From an archaeon (lineage in GTDB: Archaea; Undinarchaeota; Undinarchaeia; Undinarchaeales; JBDRKL01): a stretch of DNA of 64,000 nt. The stretch lies in assembly GCA_043814055.1 (NCBI GenBank), contig JBDRKL010000010.1, positions 64,001 through 128,000 of the forward strand, written 5' to 3'. Each line of letters begins with the position of its first letter. The first letter of the stretch is position 1. The notes beneath the pieces are model-generated. The model searched no databases and was not told the origin of the DNA. It saw only the letters and a program-made list of their open reading frames with translations. This document shows positions 2-51,963 of this stretch, piece by piece. The position numbers and the translations under genes were made by a program.

Positions 2-2050
2 GCAGACAGCACGCACAAAATATCCTGGGGCAAGATACAAGACCGCAACGGCATAGACCGCTATGAGTACCAGATTGATTATGGTGAGTGGCATAGTGTC
101 GGGGCTTCTGATAGTTTCAAGACACCAGAGCAGGCAGAGGGAATCCATACTATTTATGTCAGGGCAGTTGATGGGGCCGGCTTGGCCGGCAAGCCCGGGA
201 ATACCAGCATTTACATAGACCAGAGCGCGCCAAACACACCTGTTACAAAGGAATGGCACAGCGGGAAAAGCTGGAGCGCACACGATACGCCCTATTACGC
301 TTGGTCTGACCCAGGGGATTTAGGAAGCGGAGTAGCCAGCTATTTGGTAAGTGTTGACAACCAAACGCCAGTCAGCGTAGGGAATACGTCCTACCACCCA
401 ACATTAGGAACCGGTATGCATACTTTCAAAGTCAAGGCAGTTGATGCGCTTGGGCATGAAAGCGCTTGGTCTGATATAATAACAGTTTATATAGACACAA
501 CATCACCGAGGGTACTAGATGTGGGCTCTCCAACCCACCCGGATCAAGAAACAGTCTACATGGATAATATGCCTTACTTCAATTGGACTGAACCAAGTGA
601 CAACTCAGGAATTTATGGCTATTACTATCTTATAGACAATCTTGAGGGCACAATCCCAACTGAACTGTACTCCTGGGCTCCTGAACCTTTTGTAAACTTT
701 ACAGGATTTGGCAATCAGGTATATTCAGGCGCAACAAAGAAAGAGATGGGCTTGCCTGATGGCACATGGTACTTCCATGTAAGGGCAATAGACGTGGTTG
801 GAAATCTTGGGGCAGCCACTCACTACAAGGTAAACATCCTGACGAACGACCCGCCTGAGATTACTTTGTTGCAGCCAAATGGCGGTGAAATGTGGAGTGG
901 GGTGAAAGAGATAGCTTGGAACGCTTCTGACCCTGATGGTAATTTGCTTGAGTTTAGCGTTTCATACAGCACGGATGGGCTCGTTTATACCGAGATTGGT
1001 AACACAACTGAATTAAGTTATGGGTGGGACACTTCCACAGTAGAGGATATAGACACCTACACGATAAAAGTCGTTGCGAGCGATGGCAATGCAACTAGCG
1101 AAGACACTTCCGATATAAACTTCCTGATAGACAACACCAAGCCGGAAACAACAGACAATCACGACGAAGCGTGGCACACCCAGGAGGTAACAATAGAACT
1201 GGATGCAAACGATTCTTTCTCTGGTATTGCCGATACCTATTACATCATATACCAGGATGAAACGCCGCAGGAAACAAAGACAGTTAGCAGTGATGGCCAG
1301 CCGGTTGTGTCTTATGAGGATGATGACAACTGGGTTGAGTACTGGAGCATGGACAAAGCAGGGAACGAAGAGGGGCACAAGTTCGCCAAGAATATCAAAC
1401 TCGACAAAACCGCACCCAGCGTGAACATCTGGCTCGACCCAGCTCAAGAAGAGTACCCGAACACAGAACCACTCCCAGTACAACACTCAGCAACAGACCC
1501 GCAAGTCCAAGGCACGCCAAGCGGCATCGTGCAGACAACCTTTGACATAGACAGCACTCAGATTGAAGACCCAGCGAACATCTACAACTGGCTCGGAACA
1601 CACACAATAACACTGACAGCGACAGACATCGCAGGGAACATCAACGCTGCGCAGGTAGGATTCAACGTATACCTGCAGCTAATTGGCGAGGGACAAATAA
1701 AAATAACGCCAGAAGTTCTGAAAGTCAACCCAGGACTTCTAACCGCGCACACAACATTCCCAGAACCATACACAGGAGCTGAAATACTCAGCGCAACCTG
1801 CGACTACGCCACACACGACCAAATCGCAGACACGAACATCAAATTCAGACGCGAGGATGTTGAAACGGCGCTTGCTACGCGGGGAGAGGTACTTGACACA
1901 CACTTTGAAGTAGAAGGAACATTTGAGCACAATGACAATGTCTACAAGTTCAAGGGAAGCGATGATATAAGTAAAATAGTCAGTGCGGAAGAAACTGAGA
2001 CTGGAGAAATAGCCAGTGAAGAAGGAATAGGGGAAGAGGCGATACAATAG
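2..2050 (+). CDS. Large acidic surface protein with Ig-like/Fn3 repeats (5' truncated by window edge)
   Basis: Frame is open from base 2; repeated 'V(R/K)AxDxxGN/H' and 'IDxTxP' beta-sandwich boundary motifs; acidic composition. Confidence 0.75.
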   Translation, partial: ADSTHKISWGKIQDRNGIDRYEYQIDYGEWHSVGASDSFKTPEQAEGIHTIYVRAVDGAGLAGKPGNTSIYIDQSAPNTPVTKEWHSGKSWSAHDTPYYAWSDPGDLGSGVASYLVSVDNQTPVSVGNTSYHPTLGTGMHTFKVKAVDALGHESAWSDIITVYIDTTSPRVLDVGSPTHPDQETVYMDNMPYFNWTEPSDNSGIYGYYYLIDNLEGTIPTELYSWAPEPFVNFTGFGNQVYSGATKKEMGLPDGTWYFHVRAIDVVGNLGAATHYKVNILTNDPPEITLLQPNGGEMWSGVKEIAWNASDPDGNLLEFSVSYSTDGLVYTEIGNTTELSYGWDTSTVEDIDTYTIKVVASDGNATSEDTSDINFLIDNTKPETTDNHDEAWHTQEVTIELDANDSFSGIADTYYIIYQDETPQETKTVSSDGQPVVSYEDDDNWVEYWSMDKAGNEEGHKFAKNIKLDKTAPSVNIWLDPAQEEYPNTEPLPVQHSATDPQVQGTPSGIVQTTFDIDSTQIEDPANIYNWLGTHTITLTATDIAGNINAAQVGFNVYLQLIGEGQIKITPEVLKVNPGLLTAHTTFPEPYTGAEILSATCDYATHDQIADTNIKFRREDVETALATRGEVLDTHFEVEGTFEHNDNVYKFKGSDDISKIVSAEETETGEIASEEGIGEEAIQ

Positions 2051-2173
2051 CTTAGACTAGTGGGTTTTGCGGGACTACCCTAAAGTGGCAGATTGTTCAG
2101 GCATTCCGTCCTTTCCGTGAACGCTGTTAAAAAATCTTTATAAAGGTGGAACTACACTTTTATTTAGATAAAG

Positions 2174-5100
2174 ATGGCTTTAAAATCTCAGCTTAAATCT
2201 AGATTTCTTATAATCTCCATTATTTTTTTCCTGCTCTTCGGGGCTGTGGCGGTTTTTGCAGTTTATACCCCAACACCATCCGCGCCAATGCTTTGCACTC
2301 CTGATGTTGCGCACGACAAAGTAAGTTGCAGGGTTGGCGGAGACGGCAACAGGGACCCGTCTTTCTCCTGGCGCGACGGAATAAACATAGACCCAGTCAG
2401 CCAGTATTGGTCTGGGGACAACCCTGGCATGCGAATTGTTGGCCTTGATATTCCAAACAAATGCAAGATAGACCTCAGAATAGAAGGCATTTTGTGCAAC
2501 CGGCTAGACCCTTTTCCCTCATTTGAAGTGCACAAGGAGGGCACAGTCAGCGGTAATGCGTGCTTTATGGACATGGTTGACTTGCCTTTTGGGGTGGGTG
2601 GGATTTGGAACGGGTGCACAGACGTTAATGCCCCGCCTTTTGTTAACGGGGGAGTGACCTATTATTATGAAGAGCCAGCACCAGTATGCAATGATGAGTG
2701 CAGTACAGGCCAATATTCCTGTAATGGCAGTGCGCGAATTGAGTGCGGCAACTTTGACGGGGATTCCTGTCTTGAGTGGGGCAATAAGATTGATTGTGAG
2801 TATGGATGTGCGCTTGGGGTTTGCGAAGAGCCAGAACCCTTATTATATAATATTTCAGAAAAGCTTTATTTCCAGGCAGAGCCTTATCTGGAAAATACCT
2901 ATGTTAATATGGAAGATGAGTGGCAAAAAATAAGCCTCTCTCAATACCAGAAGGTCACCGCCACCGAGCCGTCATTTTTCTTTATGCAGGTTGATGAGAA
3001 CACACGAACCTTTGCGTATGATTATCCCTCTGCTTCTCTGGGTGTAAGCGACAGCTGGGCTGAGCGAAAAGCGAAAATATACGTTGAGCATCCAAAGGGC
3101 TATTCTATGAGTGGAGCATCGGTTTACACAAGCATACCTGTTAGCGATACTATTTCAATATGTGTTGGTAACGCGGTCAATGACAAGATAAACAACCTGC
3201 CAATAGAAGTTTTTGAGACACTTGGCAAAAAAGCCATTGAAGAAGCAGCCAAAGAAGGGGTTATCTGGGCTTCAGGAGTTGGCATACTCCTCGAGTCAAA
3301 GAAAGCGATGGATGTTGCAAAATTTGTTGCCTGTACTCAGGAAGATGAGAATAATTATGTTTATATTGGCACGACAAACGAGGACGGCTATGCAGAGGTC
3401 TGGCTTAGGGAAGGTCAGGATACAGAGATGATGGCTCGTTGGTATGATCTTAACACGCTCTACGGCGGGGTTTCTGTTGTGAATCAATACGGATTCCAGG
3501 GCTCAAAGAACGTGAAAATTGAAGAATGGATGGGTGGAGTTCCTGAATTCACGATAAGCACAAAGGGCAAGGCGCGTGTAATAACTATTCGCGACGAGAC
3601 TCAGAAGGATATCGACGAAGAGTTAGAGCAAATTTCCAGCTTCTTTGAGAACGAATACGGCATTGAAGTGAATCACTGGACTGCTGATGACTGGGCTTAC
3701 GCTCCAAAACCGCCTGTTGGCGGGGATGGTACTGACTTGAAAATTTACCTTGCACGCCTGGATTCCCTGCCTGGTGGTTCGCCAAATAATATTGGAGTGA
3801 ACTTCCAGAACTACAATCCAACCCTAGTTTATGAGGGTGTTGCGTGGCAGGTTTTTGATGGCACTAATTGGTATGAAGGTGATGTTTTTGGACTGGTTGC
3901 TGCCGAATCAAGCTTAAAGAAATTTTTAATAGCTGGCCTTGGTAAAAACGGATTTGAAACTGCTGTTGACGCATTCACATCAAAAGAAATGAACAAGGTC
4001 GTCAAGTGGACAGATCCTGTGCAATATGAAACTCTCAAATCGCACGTTTATCAGATTAAAGGCGCAAGCACAGTAGATATCTGGGAAGCAAAAGTTTGTA
4101 TTTCAGGCCCTAAAGACGATTGCAAAAACACAAACTCAAATGGAATTGCAGATTTTGGAAAAGTTCCAACAGGAACTTACACAATCAGTGTTGAAAAGAA
4201 AGGTTATTCAGTTGATTCAACAACTCCTTCTCCACGCCAAGTTGATTTAAACAGCCCAGGCTCAACCCAGTGGGTGAACTTTGGGATGACTGCTAACGAG
4301 TGGAATTACGAAATGCCAGAAGAAGTCCGAGTAAGTGAGCGATTCTATGTATACACCAACTTCACAAACGTGGGTGACGAGCTTGTTGAGTTCTCCTACA
4401 GCACAGAGCTTCGCGGCGCAAAGTTCACGCGGCTTATGCTTCAAGGAACAACAGTCTTCCTTGCTCCTGGAAATTCAGAGCGCGCCCGATGGGAATTCAG
4501 CGCAGACCAGGAAGGCGAAGGAACGCTATGGATAATCAAGGGCAATCAGGAAATAAATACAGGCAAGAAAATCAAGGTCGGTCCACTGCCTGATTTGGTT
4601 GCTTACATCCAGAAAATAGATGTGTGGGACTACGGCGGGCGAGTGGGGACTGATTTCCAGGTGAGTGTGGAGGTTAGGAACCGGGAGAACTACTCCGTCA
4701 ACATTACAGTTGAAATGGTAAACAAGAGCAATAACGCTGTTCTCGAAAAACATAGTTTGATACAGGTGCCCTATGGGTGGAGCATATACGGTTTTCAGGT
4801 TTGGCGCGAGGCAAATCCAGTTGATTACGTGTTCAATGTACGGTATGACGGCGCGGTAATTGACAGCAAGGACTTTACAGCTCAGGCAGGCACACAGGTT
4901 AATGTGCCTCCTGCGCCAACCAGCATAGGAGGCGGCTCTCCAAGCGTTAGAAGCCCAGCGCCTGCGAACTTGCCAGCAGATGCACCAATCGCAGGTGATA
5001 GCTCAAGTGGATCTCAAAACGCACTGCCTTCAATGCCACGCAATATCCAGCAAGATACATTTTCTACACCTGCTCAAAATGGGCCAACTGGAATGATTTC

Positions 5101-47968: not shown

Positions 47969-48155
47969 AATTTGTTTTAAATCATATATAATCTCTCGCC
48001 CAAGAAACTATTTAAACTTAACAATCGTTAAATTTGGGTATGAAATCACTTCACTACGCTTTCGCTTCGTTCAGTCACAATGAAACTTCAGAGAATATAA
48101 ACAATAAAATTGCTGAAGCTTCATTGTGTTCAAAGCTGGTGAAGGAGGTGAAACT

Positions 48156-48521
48156 TTGAAATTCCCGTGTGAAATCATAGTTTGGAAAGTCCTCCCAGCG
48201 ATACGCGCTGAGATGGCGCGCAACCTTGCGAAAGAGGGGATGAACCAGAAGGAAATCGCAAAGGTAATGGGCATTACAGAAGCCGCGGTGTCGCAATATG
48301 CCAACAAGAAGCGAGCTGCAGAATTCAAGATTGGCAAGAGTTTTGGCCAGCGTTTCAAGGGCGCGGCAAAGCAATTAAAGGAAACTGGCAGCCCGATACG
48401 GACTGTGGAAGTGTGCTGTGAGATATGCCGCGAGATACGCGAGCAGGGCTGTATGTGCAGTCTGCACAAGGAGAGCTCGGACCAGCCAAAAGACTGCGCG
48501 CTTTGCAAAGGAAAGTGCTAG
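48156..48521 (+). CDS. Archaeal HTH transcriptional regulator with Cys-rich C-terminus
   Basis: 'PCE....VLPAIR...QKEIAKVMGITEAAVSQY'; GGAGGTGA RBS before TTG 48156. Confidence 0.85.
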   Translation: MKFPCEIIVWKVLPAIRAEMARNLAKEGMNQKEIAKVMGITEAAVSQYANKKRAAEFKIGKSFGQRFKGAAKQLKETGSPIRTVEVCCEICREIREQGCMCSLHKESSDQPKDCALCKGKC

Positions 48522-49213
48522 CGGTGCTTCACATTATCAATATGCTTTTTCGCAGCTGCAACAAACTTGCTCATTTCTTCGTCGCTCTGCGACTTTAGCG
48601 CATCATATTTTGAATTCAGGCACCGGCCGGGAACGAACTTTTGAAGCACGTATTTCTTCACACCCTTTATGCCTTTTGCAATCGCTTCAATATCCTTCTC
48701 AGTGTGCAGGCCGGGTACGACAGTGGTGCGGAGCTCGTAGTCAATGCCGGAGTCTTTCAGGATTTGAATGCTTTCCTTGATTTTTTCAAGGTCAACCTTG
48801 GCGCCGGACGCCCTGTCATACTTAGCCTGCTCAAGCTGGGCATTAATGTCCATTGCAAAGTAGTCCACTGCTTTTGCCTTAATAAGCTGTTTGATAACTT
48901 CAGGATTGCTCCCGTTCGTGTCAACTTTCACCAGCAAATCCATTGCCCTGATTTTCCTGCAGAAATCAGACAAGCCAGGCTGCAGCGTGGGCTCACCGCC
49001 TGTGATGCAGACTGCGTCAAGGAATTTCTTCTGCCTGCCAGCAAAGTTCAGGATTTTTTCTTCAGGGATTAACTGCTGTGTATCAGCCTCAAGAACAAGC
49101 GGCCTGTTGTGACAGAAAGGGCAGCGGAAGTTGCAGCCAGGAGTGAACACTACTGCTGAGATCTTGCCATCCCAGTCCAGAGTGCTTGAATCTACAAAAC
49201 CTGCAATGTTCAT
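48518..49213 (-). CDS. nrdG: Anaerobic RNR activating enzyme (radical SAM)
   Basis: CNFRCPFCHN, 'TGGEPT', 'DTNGS'. Confidence 0.93.
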   Translation of the reverse strand: MNIAGFVDSSTLDWDGKISAVVFTPGCNFRCPFCHNRPLVLEADTQQLIPEEKILNFAGRQKKFLDAVCITGGEPTLQPGLSDFCRKIRAMDLLVKVDTNGSNPEVIKQLIKAKAVDYFAMDINAQLEQAKYDRASGAKVDLEKIKESIQILKDSGIDYELRTTVVPGLHTEKDIEAIAKGIKGVKKYVLQKFVPGRCLNSKYDALKSQSDEEMSKFVAAAKKHIDNVKHR

Positions 49214-49222
49214 TATTAAAAT

Positions 49223-49486
49223 TTATTTGAGCTTTTCCAGAAGCTGTTCCTTGGTCGGGATTTCCTCGCTTCCGCGGAACACTGGCTCGTTGTTAATTAA
49301 GATTGAAGGCGTAGATGCAATTTGATGCATCAGCGCTTCAACTAGGTTGTCGCCATCCTCAATGTTCTTGGACTCGTAATCCACCCCTTCTTTCCAGTTC
49401 AACTCTTTTGCAACCTCAGCCACAACAGCTTTTGCTTTTGGGCAGTTCGGGCAGTTGCTTGCTGTGTAAAGTACTAATTTCGCCAT
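49223..49486 (-). CDS. Thioredoxin/glutaredoxin-like protein (NrdH-like)
   Basis: CPNC motif and cis-Pro 'STP'; lies between nrdD and nrdG. Confidence 0.88.
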   Translation of the reverse strand: MAKLVLYTASNCPNCPKAKAVVAEVAKELNWKEGVDYESKNIEDGDNLVEALMHQIASTPSILINNEPVFRGSEEIPTKEQLLEKLK

Positions 49487-49491
49487 TCATA

Positions 49492-51849
49492 TCACCCCAT
49501 TTTCCTGAGCTTTGCATCAACATCTTTTTCAACTGTTGATGTTTGCGCGCCTGCTGCAAGGCCGTAGCGCCGCCTCTCGCTGAGCTCAGCCAGCTTTCCC
49601 TTGTTCCAGCCACCAACATTCTGGTAGTATCCAGTAATGCGGGACCACCAGTCAACCTTGGTTGAGTTGCAGTTTGAGCAGGTGTTACTCAGGCCGCCGC
49701 TCGTGAAGTTGCAGTCACTGCAAACTGTCAGGTCCTTGGTGAACGCGAAGTATTGTATCGCAGTCTTCTGCGCGATGCGCTTGGTCAGCTCGTATATGCC
49801 CTCTGTGTTCGGATTTGCTTCCCCAAGCCACACATGGCTCATTGCCCCGCCGTCAGTGAGCGGGTGGAACGCGCCCTCAAGGTCAAGGCGGTCAAACATT
49901 GGCACGTCAGCGAACGGGCTCACGTGGAAGCTGTTCGTGTAATATGCACTGTTCCCGCTGCCCTGATAAACAGCCTGGTCCGGATACGCTTTCATGTCAA
50001 TCTGGGCTAGGCGGTACGAACAGGACTCAGCAGGAGTTCTGGCGAGCGAAAAGTTCATACCAGTCTCCTTTCTAAAGTCTGCAACTATATCTTTTATATC
50101 CTTCATGAATTTCAGACCAAATTTCCAGGAATCAGTTGATTCGTGCAGTTCTGAACCGGTGTGCGCCTTGAGCATTTCATTCATCCCAACTAGTCCAATT
50201 ATGAAACTCTGCTTGTCCGGCTCAAGATAGCGATCTCCTTTGTCATTAACAGATTGGGCCATGAAGGGCAATAAGCCATTTTTCAAATTCTTTGAAATTA
50301 TTTTCTTCTTTAGTATATGCGCCTCTTTTGCTTTGTCCATTCTATCCTTTAGGAGTTCATAGAGTTTGCCATCATCCCCTTTTGCTTCATATGCTAACTG
50401 GGGTAGATTTATTGTAACAACTTGCAATGCCCCGCCTCGTAGTGTACCACCGACAATATCATCTTGTGTATTTGCATCACCAAGTGGCATTAAAAATGCA
50501 CAGCACTGATAGCACGAGAACTCAGGCATGTAGGGCTGGTTTATAATATAATATGGAGTGCCAAACTTTGCTGCCAATTCTGAGACTTTAAGCAGAGTTT
50601 CTTCATTCTTGCCGTTCATTTCTTTTGGGTGCAACTGCACCTCAAACTTGGGGAAATTAAACGGCTTGCCGATTGCATCCCCTTCAAGATACACATCAAC
50701 AAATGCATTGAACAATTTGTTTGTTTCATTGTCAAAATCAGCATATGTTGTACTATCCTTAACTACACCACCAGGCAGCACAGCTGGGATGTCCAGGAAC
50801 TGCTTTGGCACGTGCATGTCGCAATCAATGCTTGAAAATACAGTCTGCCCACCGCGGGCCACATACATTTGACTCATCTCGTAGATGAACATCTGCGCCA
50901 TCTGCCTGAGCTTCTTGTCATCCATGCCTGTTACATAGGGGGACAGGAATGTGTTAAAGTACGAAAAACCCTGCCCGCCAGCGCAGTTTGTTTGCGCCGC
51001 AGCCAGCGCTTTCGCAGCGTGCAGGAAAGCAACTTCAGCCTTCTTTGCAGGAGCTGCAACTGCAGTGTGATTACCCACCCCGTCCGCCTTGAACCCGTTC
51101 TTTAGGAAGTACCGCACATCGTGCGAGAAGCAGAATGGTCTCATTGCGAAGTAATCCAGGTCATGGATGTGTATCTGACCCCGCATATGGGCGTCAGACA
51201 ACTCAACAGGGAGAACCTTGACTAGAGTGTATTCTTTGGCAATTTGGTCAGCCATCAACTTGTGCACTGTCTCAGGGTTGTACTGCAGGTTGGCGTTTTC
51301 CTTAGAGCCTTTCTCTATCATCTGAGTTACGTCGTAGACAGGCATTCCGATTCTGGTGTAAAGCTTTCGCTCCTTCTCAAGGCCGTGTACAATAAGCTCG
51401 CGGTTCACAAGTTCCCTGACAAGCGGGGCTGAGAGGAAATTCAAGCCAAGGCGCCTTATCTCTGCTTCAACGTCCTTGGATATCTGCTCTGCCTGTTTTG
51501 GCGCGAGCTTTGTCTCCTTTACAAGAGAGTCTTTTATGCGTAAAGCGTCAAAGGAATCCATCACGTTCTTGGTCGTCCTCACGTAGATTCCATAGTCTTT
51601 AAAGAACATGCTTTTTAGCCCGTCATAAAGAGGAGAGTTTGTATTTATCTGGAAAACCAGCATGTTGCCCTCGGAAGTCTGGCCGAGGAGACCCGTCTCA
51701 GTGAGGCGCTCTAGCTCCTTGCGCACAGAAGGAACCGAAAGATTAGTCATCCTAGCCAGCTTTCGCAGGTGAAAGCTCTTGGTAGGATTTAACAGGAAAA
51801 GCTCAAGGAGCTTAACCCGCGTCTTTGATGTGAATAATTTTTCTAGCAT
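49492..51849 (-). CDS. nrdD: Class III ribonucleoside-triphosphate reductase with N-terminal wHTH and ATP cone
   Basis: 'IHIHDL', 'TPAES', 'YYTNS', Zn ribbon, glycyl-radical 'RITGYY'. Confidence 0.95.
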   Translation of the reverse strand: MLEKLFTSKTRVKLLELFLLNPTKSFHLRKLARMTNLSVPSVRKELERLTETGLLGQTSEGNMLVFQINTNSPLYDGLKSMFFKDYGIYVRTTKNVMDSFDALRIKDSLVKETKLAPKQAEQISKDVEAEIRRLGLNFLSAPLVRELVNRELIVHGLEKERKLYTRIGMPVYDVTQMIEKGSKENANLQYNPETVHKLMADQIAKEYTLVKVLPVELSDAHMRGQIHIHDLDYFAMRPFCFSHDVRYFLKNGFKADGVGNHTAVAAPAKKAEVAFLHAAKALAAAQTNCAGGQGFSYFNTFLSPYVTGMDDKKLRQMAQMFIYEMSQMYVARGGQTVFSSIDCDMHVPKQFLDIPAVLPGGVVKDSTTYADFDNETNKLFNAFVDVYLEGDAIGKPFNFPKFEVQLHPKEMNGKNEETLLKVSELAAKFGTPYYIINQPYMPEFSCYQCCAFLMPLGDANTQDDIVGGTLRGGALQVVTINLPQLAYEAKGDDGKLYELLKDRMDKAKEAHILKKKIISKNLKNGLLPFMAQSVNDKGDRYLEPDKQSFIIGLVGMNEMLKAHTGSELHESTDSWKFGLKFMKDIKDIVADFRKETGMNFSLARTPAESCSYRLAQIDMKAYPDQAVYQGSGNSAYYTNSFHVSPFADVPMFDRLDLEGAFHPLTDGGAMSHVWLGEANPNTEGIYELTKRIAQKTAIQYFAFTKDLTVCSDCNFTSGGLSNTCSNCNSTKVDWWSRITGYYQNVGGWNKGKLAELSERRRYGLAAGAQTSTVEKDVDAKLRKMG

Positions 51850-51963
51850 TTTATTTAGGCCACCACCTTAGTGTAAGGAAAAGATATACGATTGTCATAT
51901 ATAAGTATTTCGGTGGATTTTCGGTAAAAATAGATTTATACCCCCTCAAACTATAAGATTAGT

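Follow-up and report, generated by a model that had tools for sequence, protein, structure and literature searches.

A winged helix-turn-helix domain in the regulatory slot of an archaeal class III ribonucleotide reductase

Can a ribonucleotide reductase (RNR) also act as the regulator of its own genes? The question is posed by an nrdD gene at 49492..51849 on the minus strand of a 64-kb stretch of archaeal DNA (hereafter the window), whose 785-aa product, P0001, consists of a winged helix-turn-helix (wHTH) domain, an ATP-cone-like domain and a class III RNR core. A catalytically intact NrdD with a wHTH in its regulatory slot is a testable candidate for feedback at both the enzyme and the gene level in one polypeptide. 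Our study shows that the wHTH–cone–NrdD fusion is in frame and real. As for its role, the explanation that we prefer, with a confidence somewhat short of an even chance, is that P0001 is an active thioredoxin-type NrdD doubling as a nucleotide-sensing regulator of its own operon.

The fusion protein

The reading frame of P0001 starts at the first ATG past an in-frame TAA, with a GGTGGTG ahead of Met1 (51861-67, minus strand; 8–14 nt 5′ of the ATG). Word-indexed searches of 5.8 billion clusters, covering proteins of 431–1374 aa, returned two matches among 65 candidates for residues 1–88, which were P0001 itself and P0002; residues 1–180 gave three matches among 739 candidates, the third being a Hermodarchaeota NrdD-like protein without a wHTH. 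P0002, a 793-aa protein from a different contig, assembly and sources, is 76% identical to P0001 and has an identical wHTH–cone junction. An earlier reading of this DNA from the sequence alone had described a wHTH in frame with an ATP cone and a catalytic core and had suggested an architecture search, which now adds one further carrier with the same junction. The same sequence-only reading had named a separate helix-turn-helix (HTH) open reading frame (ORF) in relatives as a sign against the fusion; none was found in the 76 loci of related archaeal NrdDs obtained from one scan of GTDB species genomes, and P0002 is also fused.

Between the two carriers the wHTH is conserved like the enzyme core (67/88 and 467/596 identical residues, or 76% and 78%, with 52/77, or 68%, in the cone) and unlike the unconstrained C-terminal tail (6/21, 29%). 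This identity, together with the family-invariant residues that P0001 keeps, speaks against an artefact of the assembly and against a chance fusion in decay. We consider it very improbable that the fusion arose by evolutionary accident or through an error of assembly or annotation, the wHTH being functionless and the active product possibly made from Met81. Such an accident would fit the rarity of the architecture, with two carriers only among the collections searched, and the position of Met81, which lies 9 residues ahead of the cone like the starts of the short forms L003 and L011. Yet the junction is common to two independent assemblies, identity is 76% in the wHTH and 29% in the tail, no stop or frameshift interrupts the frame, the family-invariant residues are all kept, and a strong GGTGGTG is read before Met1 and none before Met81. 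Met81 itself (51607-51609, minus strand) is an internal methionine kept in P0002, at the position where extension-less NrdDs of the clade begin; no Shine–Dalgarno-like motif was seen before it by eye, and a second, wHTH-less product may start there.

Residues 1–88 (51586..51849, minus strand) form an ArsR-like wHTH according to phmmer, AlphaFold2, Foldseek and our alignment of the wHTH family (A4), close to the residues 1–85 of the sequence-only reading. Pfam and NCBIfam searches of the whole protein miss this domain, and a domain-only search and exhaustive phmmer were needed. On the wHTH these libraries give sub-threshold matches only (HVO_A0114, E 0.0028; HTH_5, E 0.053, 13.8 bits versus 22), and HTH_metalloreg (NF033788) scores 19.7–24.7 bits with a cut-off of 55; the curated ArsR/SmtB family thresholds are not reached, despite the ArsR-like fold. 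With phmmer, residues 1–88 match 2385 proteins at E ≤ 1e-3 among 1.84 billion representatives, 125 of them at E ≤ 1e-10 and the best at 1e-19. The AlphaFold2 model of the domain, built from a 107-sequence alignment (predicted local distance difference test score (pLDDT) 94.2, predicted TM-score 0.83), has the topology H1 (9–20), β (25–27), H2 (28–35), H3 (39–52), β-hairpin wing (55–60/63–68) and H4 (75–86).

Foldseek comparison of the modelled wHTH with the PDB gives ArsR/SmtB-type and related regulators, with E values of 7e-5 to 2.4e-3 and TMq of 0.63–0.74. The matches at E ≤ 1e-3 comprise eight chains of six entries: HlyU (3jth), Rv0081 (6jmi), Sso10a-2 (4hw0) and three whose depositors call them possible or predicted regulators. 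Somewhat weaker matches, with E between 1.3e-3 and 2.4e-3, are CzrA, SmtB, CadC and DNA-bound NolR, and 3r0a and 3cuo were returned as well. The domain carries a net charge of +5, versus −2 for the rest of P0001, and retains all the invariant or near-invariant positions of the wHTH family in A4 (M1, S8, R11, L15, R29, E45 and L49). On this modelling, residues 1–88 are a winged HTH with the fold of DNA-binding regulators, and may bind DNA. In the AlphaFold2 model of full-length P0001 (pLDDT 90.8), whose best Foldseek matches are the NrdDs of S. thermophilus and P. copri, with those of T. maritima and T4 also found, the wHTH blocks score 71–90 and the linker ~69–77, which is compatible with a flexibly tethered wHTH.

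The closest sequence relatives of the domain are short proteins. The best 150 phmmer matches are 77–343 aa long and carry the domain mostly at the N terminus, the sole exception being a spurious RTX-repeat protein, and no NrdD-length protein is among them. In 6 of 14 relatives examined with Pfam, a Pol-beta/NTP_transf_2 nucleotidyltransferase domain follows the wHTH, with a weak NCBIfam link to MntA antitoxins (30 bits versus a cut-off of 60). A combined MAFFT alignment of wHTH-only proteins and cone sequences (A3) misaligned the domains and was set aside for the separate alignments A4 and A5.

A profile hidden Markov model (HMM) of the wHTH family (151 sequences), compared with every stop-to-stop ORF of 40 aa or more in the window and the 76 loci, matched no ORF in the related loci and only the fusion's own ORF in the window. 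The origin of P0001 by fusion of a neighbouring regulator gene to nrdD is unsupported, with no wHTH gene beside nrdD in the 76 loci. Elsewhere in the window we found no second NrdD, no second ATP-cone and no other wHTH of this family, even with the wHTH HMM relaxed to E ≤ 10.

By every sequence feature tested P0001 is a class III RNR, and its core looks catalytically intact. Residues 184–762 match Pfam PF13597 (NRDD) with E 3.1e-160 and 535 bits against a cut-off of 26.2, and the protein passes the NCBIfam NrdD model TIGR02487 (532.6 bits, cut-off 326.35). Motif conservation was judged in the 69-sequence alignment A5 (all motifs on the minus strand). Just past the cone is the Asn-x-Asn active-site flap, N185-A-N187 (51289..51297), where E184, N185, A186 and N187 are near-invariant; C446-Y-Q-C-C450 (50500..50514) is a double-Cys finger-loop region with no preceding Met, in which Q448, C449 and C450 are near-invariant. 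The glycyl-radical domain keeps its four-Cys zinc ribbon (49669..49722; C710 and C713 invariant, C724 and C727 near-invariant) and the glycyl-radical motif R737-I-T-G740-Y741 (49627..49641; S736, R737, T739, G740 and Y741 near-invariant). Double-Cys finger loops without a leading Met are associated with thioredoxin-type reduction (PMC9669993, in excerpt), and thioredoxin systems are used by some class III RNRs (PMC5704485, in excerpt); P0001 looks like a redoxin-dependent NrdD.

The outer cone and a convergent family

Between the wHTH and the core lies a retained ATP-cone-like domain (‘cone 2’, residues 89–165; 51355..51585, minus strand), recognized by sub-threshold Pfam matching, hhalign and AlphaFold2. 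The Pfam ATP-cone model (PF03477) covers residues 89–159 with 19.7 bits in the whole protein and 22.3 bits in the N-terminal 234 aa, under its cut-off of 25.8, and the homologous inner cone in many relatives passes that cut-off. The inner cone is homologous to the relatives’ outer canonical cone by hhalign (probability 96.6%, E 5e-10), and AlphaFold2 gives it a β-hairpin and helices (β 89–91, β 97–99, H 102–113, H 117–134, H 141–154). A PDB profile search with the inner cone, made to map nucleotide-binding residues, produced a spurious match only and no usable alignment. Excerpts of PMC12662201 describe the NrdD flap as sitting between cone and barrel, and StNrdD as an enzyme in which dATP causes the cones to dimerise and the flap to be withheld, the cone being repositioned in an ATP/dATP-dependent way. 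The retained cone of P0001 stands directly ahead of the Asn-x-Asn flap and is thus the positional equivalent of the activity-regulating cone in solved NrdDs.

What usually precedes this inner cone can be read from the 76 related loci, of which the best are from Altiarchaeota at ~70% identity. In nearly all of them the tblastn match begins at query residue 83–90. Pfam finds two ATP-cones in the N termini of 30 of 60 relatives, which have an outer canonical cone ahead of the inner one kept in P0001; in other relatives the N-terminal extension is absent (for example L003, L004 and L011–L013), and one, ORF 1 of L038, has a different wHTH at its N terminus. Trees were built of the part that starts with the inner cone (71 rows with LG+G4, 33 rows with LG+C20 PMSF), 16 truncated, intein-bearing or N-containing rows having been left out before the first. 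Both trees pair P0001 with P0002 (SH-aLRT 99), within a clade of 24–25 Altiarchaeota-type rows that comprises 17 two-cone, 5–6 short and 2 wHTH forms. The sister of the pair is the two-cone L007 (support 91–92, under the star threshold), and the pair is apart from the short forms; the Altiarchaeota-like placement of P0001 is that of the NrdD tree alone.

Since the pair nests among two-cone NrdDs, away from the short forms, replacement of the outer canonical cone by the wHTH is the likeliest and most parsimonious reading. The sequence-only reading, which spoke of a wHTH fused to the enzyme’s ATP cone, was right about the fusion, and a simple addition of the wHTH gives way to a probable replacement.

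Replacement of a cone also brings in an explanation other than the one we prefer, which we judge unlikely: the wHTH would not bind DNA and would serve as a protein–protein or oligomerisation module in the role of the lost outer cone, tuning activity and not transcription, for instance by stabilising dimers or tetramers, by preventing their formation, or by docking redoxin or NrdG. ArsR-type domains dimerise via their terminal helices, and the corresponding H1 and H4 are present in our model; nor could an operator be shown (below). Oligomerisation-based allostery is moreover the known role of the replaced domain (PMC9669993 and PMC12662201, in excerpt). However, all 50 listed Foldseek neighbours of the wHTH are DNA-binding, known or depositor-annotated, and comprise transcription regulators, Sso10a-2 and a plasmid centromere-binding protein. 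The domain is also basic (+5), the family-conserved R11, R29 and helix-3 positions are kept, and the catalytically dead NrdD-like family described below keeps its wHTH though it has no activity left to tune.

Several other arrangements were seen among the related NrdDs. Aenigmatarchaeota- and Undinarchaeota-type enzymes (L015, L016, L019, L020, L022, L023, L025, L026, L028–L032, L044 and L050) have a conserved extension of ~95 aa ahead of the inner cone that Pfam does not recognize; it may be a degenerate cone without the β-hairpin. Two or three tandem nrdD genes are present in each of L002, L009, L034, L041, L053 and L071, often a copy with an outer cone beside a copy lacking it. Overlong frames containing the NrdD match in L043 (1859 aa), L044 (1236 aa), L072 (1134 aa) and L074 (2037 aa), which were left out of the trees, are probably due to inteins.

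The Bathyarchaeota locus L038 leads to a second architecture of this kind. Its protein P0154 (745 aa, ORF 1366-3600), encoded directly upstream of an intact nrdD (P0155), has an N-terminal wHTH of the PF24038/DUF7347 family (38.6 bits versus a cut-off of 27.6), which meets the cone at the junction also seen in P0001. P0154 is without the glycyl-radical motif, the finger-loop cysteines and the flap, and with 313.4 bits falls just short of the NrdD equivalog cut-off of 326.35. Residues 1–180 of P0154 matched 2076 of 2871 candidates at E ≤ 1e-3. Among the 120 matches listed, 116 have an HTH-type Pfam domain together with NRDD in precomputed annotation; they are mostly from Bathyarchaeia, and the listed members are named only ‘anaerobic ribonucleoside-triphosphate reductase’ or ‘helix-turn-helix domain-containing protein’.

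We aligned 117 full-length members, namely P0154 and the 116 matches of at least 700 aa, leaving out four shorter ones. In all 117, the R-x-[TCSV]-G-Y motif is absent from the last 80 residues and the C..CC/C.QC motif from residues 350–560. The column of the glycyl-radical Gly holds mainly A (47) and S (45), with others, and G in only 5 members; the first flap column (N185) has Asn in 0/117 and the second (N187) in 3/117. The cone positions R91, F100, I105, E112, R145 and E146 and four ribbon cysteines are retained in 117/117. Judged by these motifs, the DUF7347 family appears to have given up catalysis and to have preserved the cone and the wHTH, which are what a nucleotide-sensing DNA-binding regulator needs, and its members are candidate NrdD-derived transcription factors. 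On the NrdD tree the family forms a separate long branch with an origin apart from P0001, indicating that a wHTH was fused to cone-NrdD independently, and convergently, in archaea.

Further leads came from ESM-Atlas feature searches, which gave at least 8 clusters of 55–168 members with HTH plus ATP-cone and/or NRDD, without alignments; the commonest phyla are Bathyarchaeota, Nitrososphaerota, Thermoproteota, Promethearchaeota and Nanobdellota. In L038, the AT-rich DNA that separates the dead wHTH-NrdD gene from the intact nrdD contains a perfect 14-bp palindrome, TTATAACGTTATAA (3808-3821), followed by a second ATAACGT at 3827-3833; the palindrome could be an operator. P0003, a 618-aa NrdD-like protein of Hermodarchaeota (compare L076), has no wHTH and stops before the Zn-ribbon/glycyl-radical domain; either its gene model is truncated or it may be one more NrdD derivative without catalysis.

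Taken as a class, the wHTH–cone–NrdD-like pseudo-enzymes are a candidate group of archaeal regulators, and with P0001 they offer a natural series of stages on the way from enzyme to transcription factor. A broader proposal, which we hold to be possible but doubtful, is that archaea, most of which lack NrdR, repeatedly made NrdD itself into a nucleotide-sensing transcription factor of dNTP synthesis by adding a wHTH. P0001 would be the bifunctional form, an active enzyme whose repression of its own operon follows the ATP/dATP state of the inner cone. The DUF7347 family would be the final stage, reached by duplication and loss of catalysis, an undescribed counterpart of bacterial NrdR.

Operon, upstream region and proposed feedback

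The nrdD fusion is followed by a gene for an 87-aa thioredoxin-like protein with a CPNC motif (49223..49486, minus strand), which matches PF13192 (E 7e-11) and, under the cut-off, the MJ0307 family TIGR00411 (E 2.6e-13), and then by nrdG (48518..49213, minus strand), a radical S-adenosylmethionine activase (TIGR02495, NrdG2; E 2.4e-62, 209.7 bits versus a cut-off of 131.15). These Pfam and NCBIfam matches bear out the operon continuation with a CPNC redoxin and nrdG that had been read from the sequence. Of the 76 related loci, 51 have a CPNC-redoxin homologue directly 3′ of nrdD and 32 contain nrdG; the order nrdD-trx(-nrdG) is typical of the clade. Convergent with nrdG, and overlapping its end by 4 bases, is a plus-strand gene (48126-48521) for a protein of 131 aa that has a weak helix-turn-helix of HTH_3 type and ends in a Cys-rich tail. 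This protein has no homologue in the 76 related loci and could be an unrelated regulator.

Upstream of nrdD is a divergent intergenic region of 114 bp (51850..51963). A TATA-like TTATATAT at 51897-51904 on the minus strand, ~50 nt ahead of the ATG, is presumably the nrdD promoter element, given archaeal promoter architecture, and archaeal repressors usually act between the TATA box and the expected transcription start. The imperfect inverted repeat GTGTA-N9-TATAC that had been noticed near the promoter is present at 51871-51889, with 4/5 of the arm positions complementary; it does not stand out from chance, as 25 of 100 shuffled versions of the window also contain the exact pattern. Inverted repeats of that quality (5-nt arms, at most one mismatch, spacer 5–13) are found in all 1121 of 1121 114-bp windows of the sequence, and the 27 such pairs in the intergenic region are equalled or exceeded in 506 of 2000 shuffles. 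An exact direct repeat, ACCGAAA-N4-ACCGAAA with 11-bp spacing, lies immediately upstream of the TATA-like box (51908-51925, minus strand). As a pattern it is unique in the window, and some exact 7-mer direct repeat with 8–15-bp spacing is found in 114 of 1121 windows and 140 of 2000 shuffles. Both repeats, being at chance level in these counts, were rejected as operator evidence.

We infer DNA binding, its target, its dependence on nucleotides and the sign of the regulation in the following way. Each protomer of an NrdD dimer would contribute one wHTH on a flexible tether. The geometry of the two would be set by the retained inner ATP-cone, whose counterpart in solved NrdDs moves or dimerises depending on whether ATP or dATP is bound, and in one nucleotide state both wHTH domains would bind an operator in the 114-bp region and repress nrdD-trx-nrdG. 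The enzyme would in this way report the state of deoxyribonucleoside triphosphate (dNTP) and ATP pools to its own promoter, as a ‘trigger enzyme’ functionally analogous to bacterial NrdR; a dNTP-sensing repressor of its own operon had likewise been inferred in the sequence-only reading. In favour of this proposal, the fusion recurs in P0002 with a wHTH about as conserved as the core, the domain has the fold of DNA-binding regulators and occupies the regulatory slot, the retained cone precedes the flap, and the catalytic motifs, nrdG and the redoxin gene are all kept. The convergent DUF7347 family and the reported rarity of NrdR in archaea point the same way.

Several points weigh against it. 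The 114-bp region upstream of nrdD holds no significant operator candidate, the 76 loci of the clade offer no precedent of a regulator gene next door, and the collections searched contain two carriers only. The retained cone, a putative nucleotide-binding domain, stays under the Pfam cut-off. For the wHTH-nucleotidyltransferase (MntA-like) proteins, the nearest relatives of the wHTH, we found no documentation of DNA binding. Finally, the dead family speaks for a regulatory use of the scaffold but not for a double role of an active enzyme.

One further explanation, which we regard as quite improbable, is that the wHTH binds DNA with little specificity and tethers the reductase to the chromosome or replisome, where dNTPs would be made at the point of use, and that it has no part in transcriptional control. 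The same fold and charge evidence is consistent with such tethering, as is the lack of a significant upstream palindrome, and the PDB title of one structural neighbour, Sso10a-2, calls it a DNA-binding protein and nothing more. However, the nearest sequence family and most structural neighbours of the wHTH are specific regulators, and the convergent dead paralogues would gain nothing by being tethered.

Comparison with known systems

Full-text searches of openly accessible papers found none on a wHTH-NrdD fusion or on the DUF7347-cone-NrdD family. Excerpts of the PMC9669993 survey put the diversity of RNR N-terminal lengths down to 0–3 ATP-cones, and a word search of the survey gave none of HTH, winged, DNA-binding, transcription or tandem. 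Class III RNRs with ATP-cones (P. copri 8p23, S. thermophilus 9dca) share with P0001 the core, flap, Zn-ribbon, glycyl-radical motif and inner cone, and the two-cone Altiarchaeota NrdDs (L001, L007) differ in having an outer cone where P0001 has the wHTH. The DUF7347 family resembles P0001 in the order of wHTH, cone and NrdD-like body, in the junction and in the cone signature. Its wHTH, however, belongs to another family, PF24038 not being among the P0001 matches even at E ≤ 10, and it lacks the glycyl-radical, finger-loop Cys and flap motifs that P0001 keeps; P0001 is not a member.

The wHTH itself is nearest to that of the wHTH-nucleotidyltransferase (MntA-antitoxin-like) proteins of ~190–200 aa, in which it is also N-terminal (44–48% identity, E 1e-16 to 1e-14), but there its C-terminal partner is a Pol-beta-type nucleotidyltransferase and not an RNR. 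No gene of this type was found near nrdD in the window or the 76 loci. ArsR/SmtB repressors (HlyU, CzrA, SmtB, CadC and NolR) share the fold and size of the DNA-binding domain, whereas they are stand-alone dimeric metal sensors and the wHTH of P0001 is a domain of an enzyme. In trigger enzymes such as PutA and BirA, an active enzyme represses the genes of its own pathway through an appended DNA-binding domain; they are of families unrelated to P0001, in which the dual role is a proposal.

The closest functional parallel is bacterial NrdR, with its Zn-ribbon and ATP-cone. Excerpts of PMC11226230 describe the ATP-cone as essentially restricted to RNRs and NrdR, and excerpts of PMC9110341 describe NrdR as rare in archaea and its boxes as overlapping the transcription start site. 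In NrdR, as in P0001, a DNA-binding module is coupled directly to an ATP-cone in an RNR system, and the nucleotide state controls transcription of the RNR operon, as proposed here for P0001. The two differ in that NrdR is a stand-alone repressor of ~150 aa with a Zn-ribbon, whereas P0001 has a wHTH and carries its cone within a full, apparently active 785-aa NrdD. Their sequence relationship is limited to the cone, and the N terminus of P0001 has no Cys4 ribbon. P0001 is thus not a member of the NrdR family, but by analogy it may work like NrdR.

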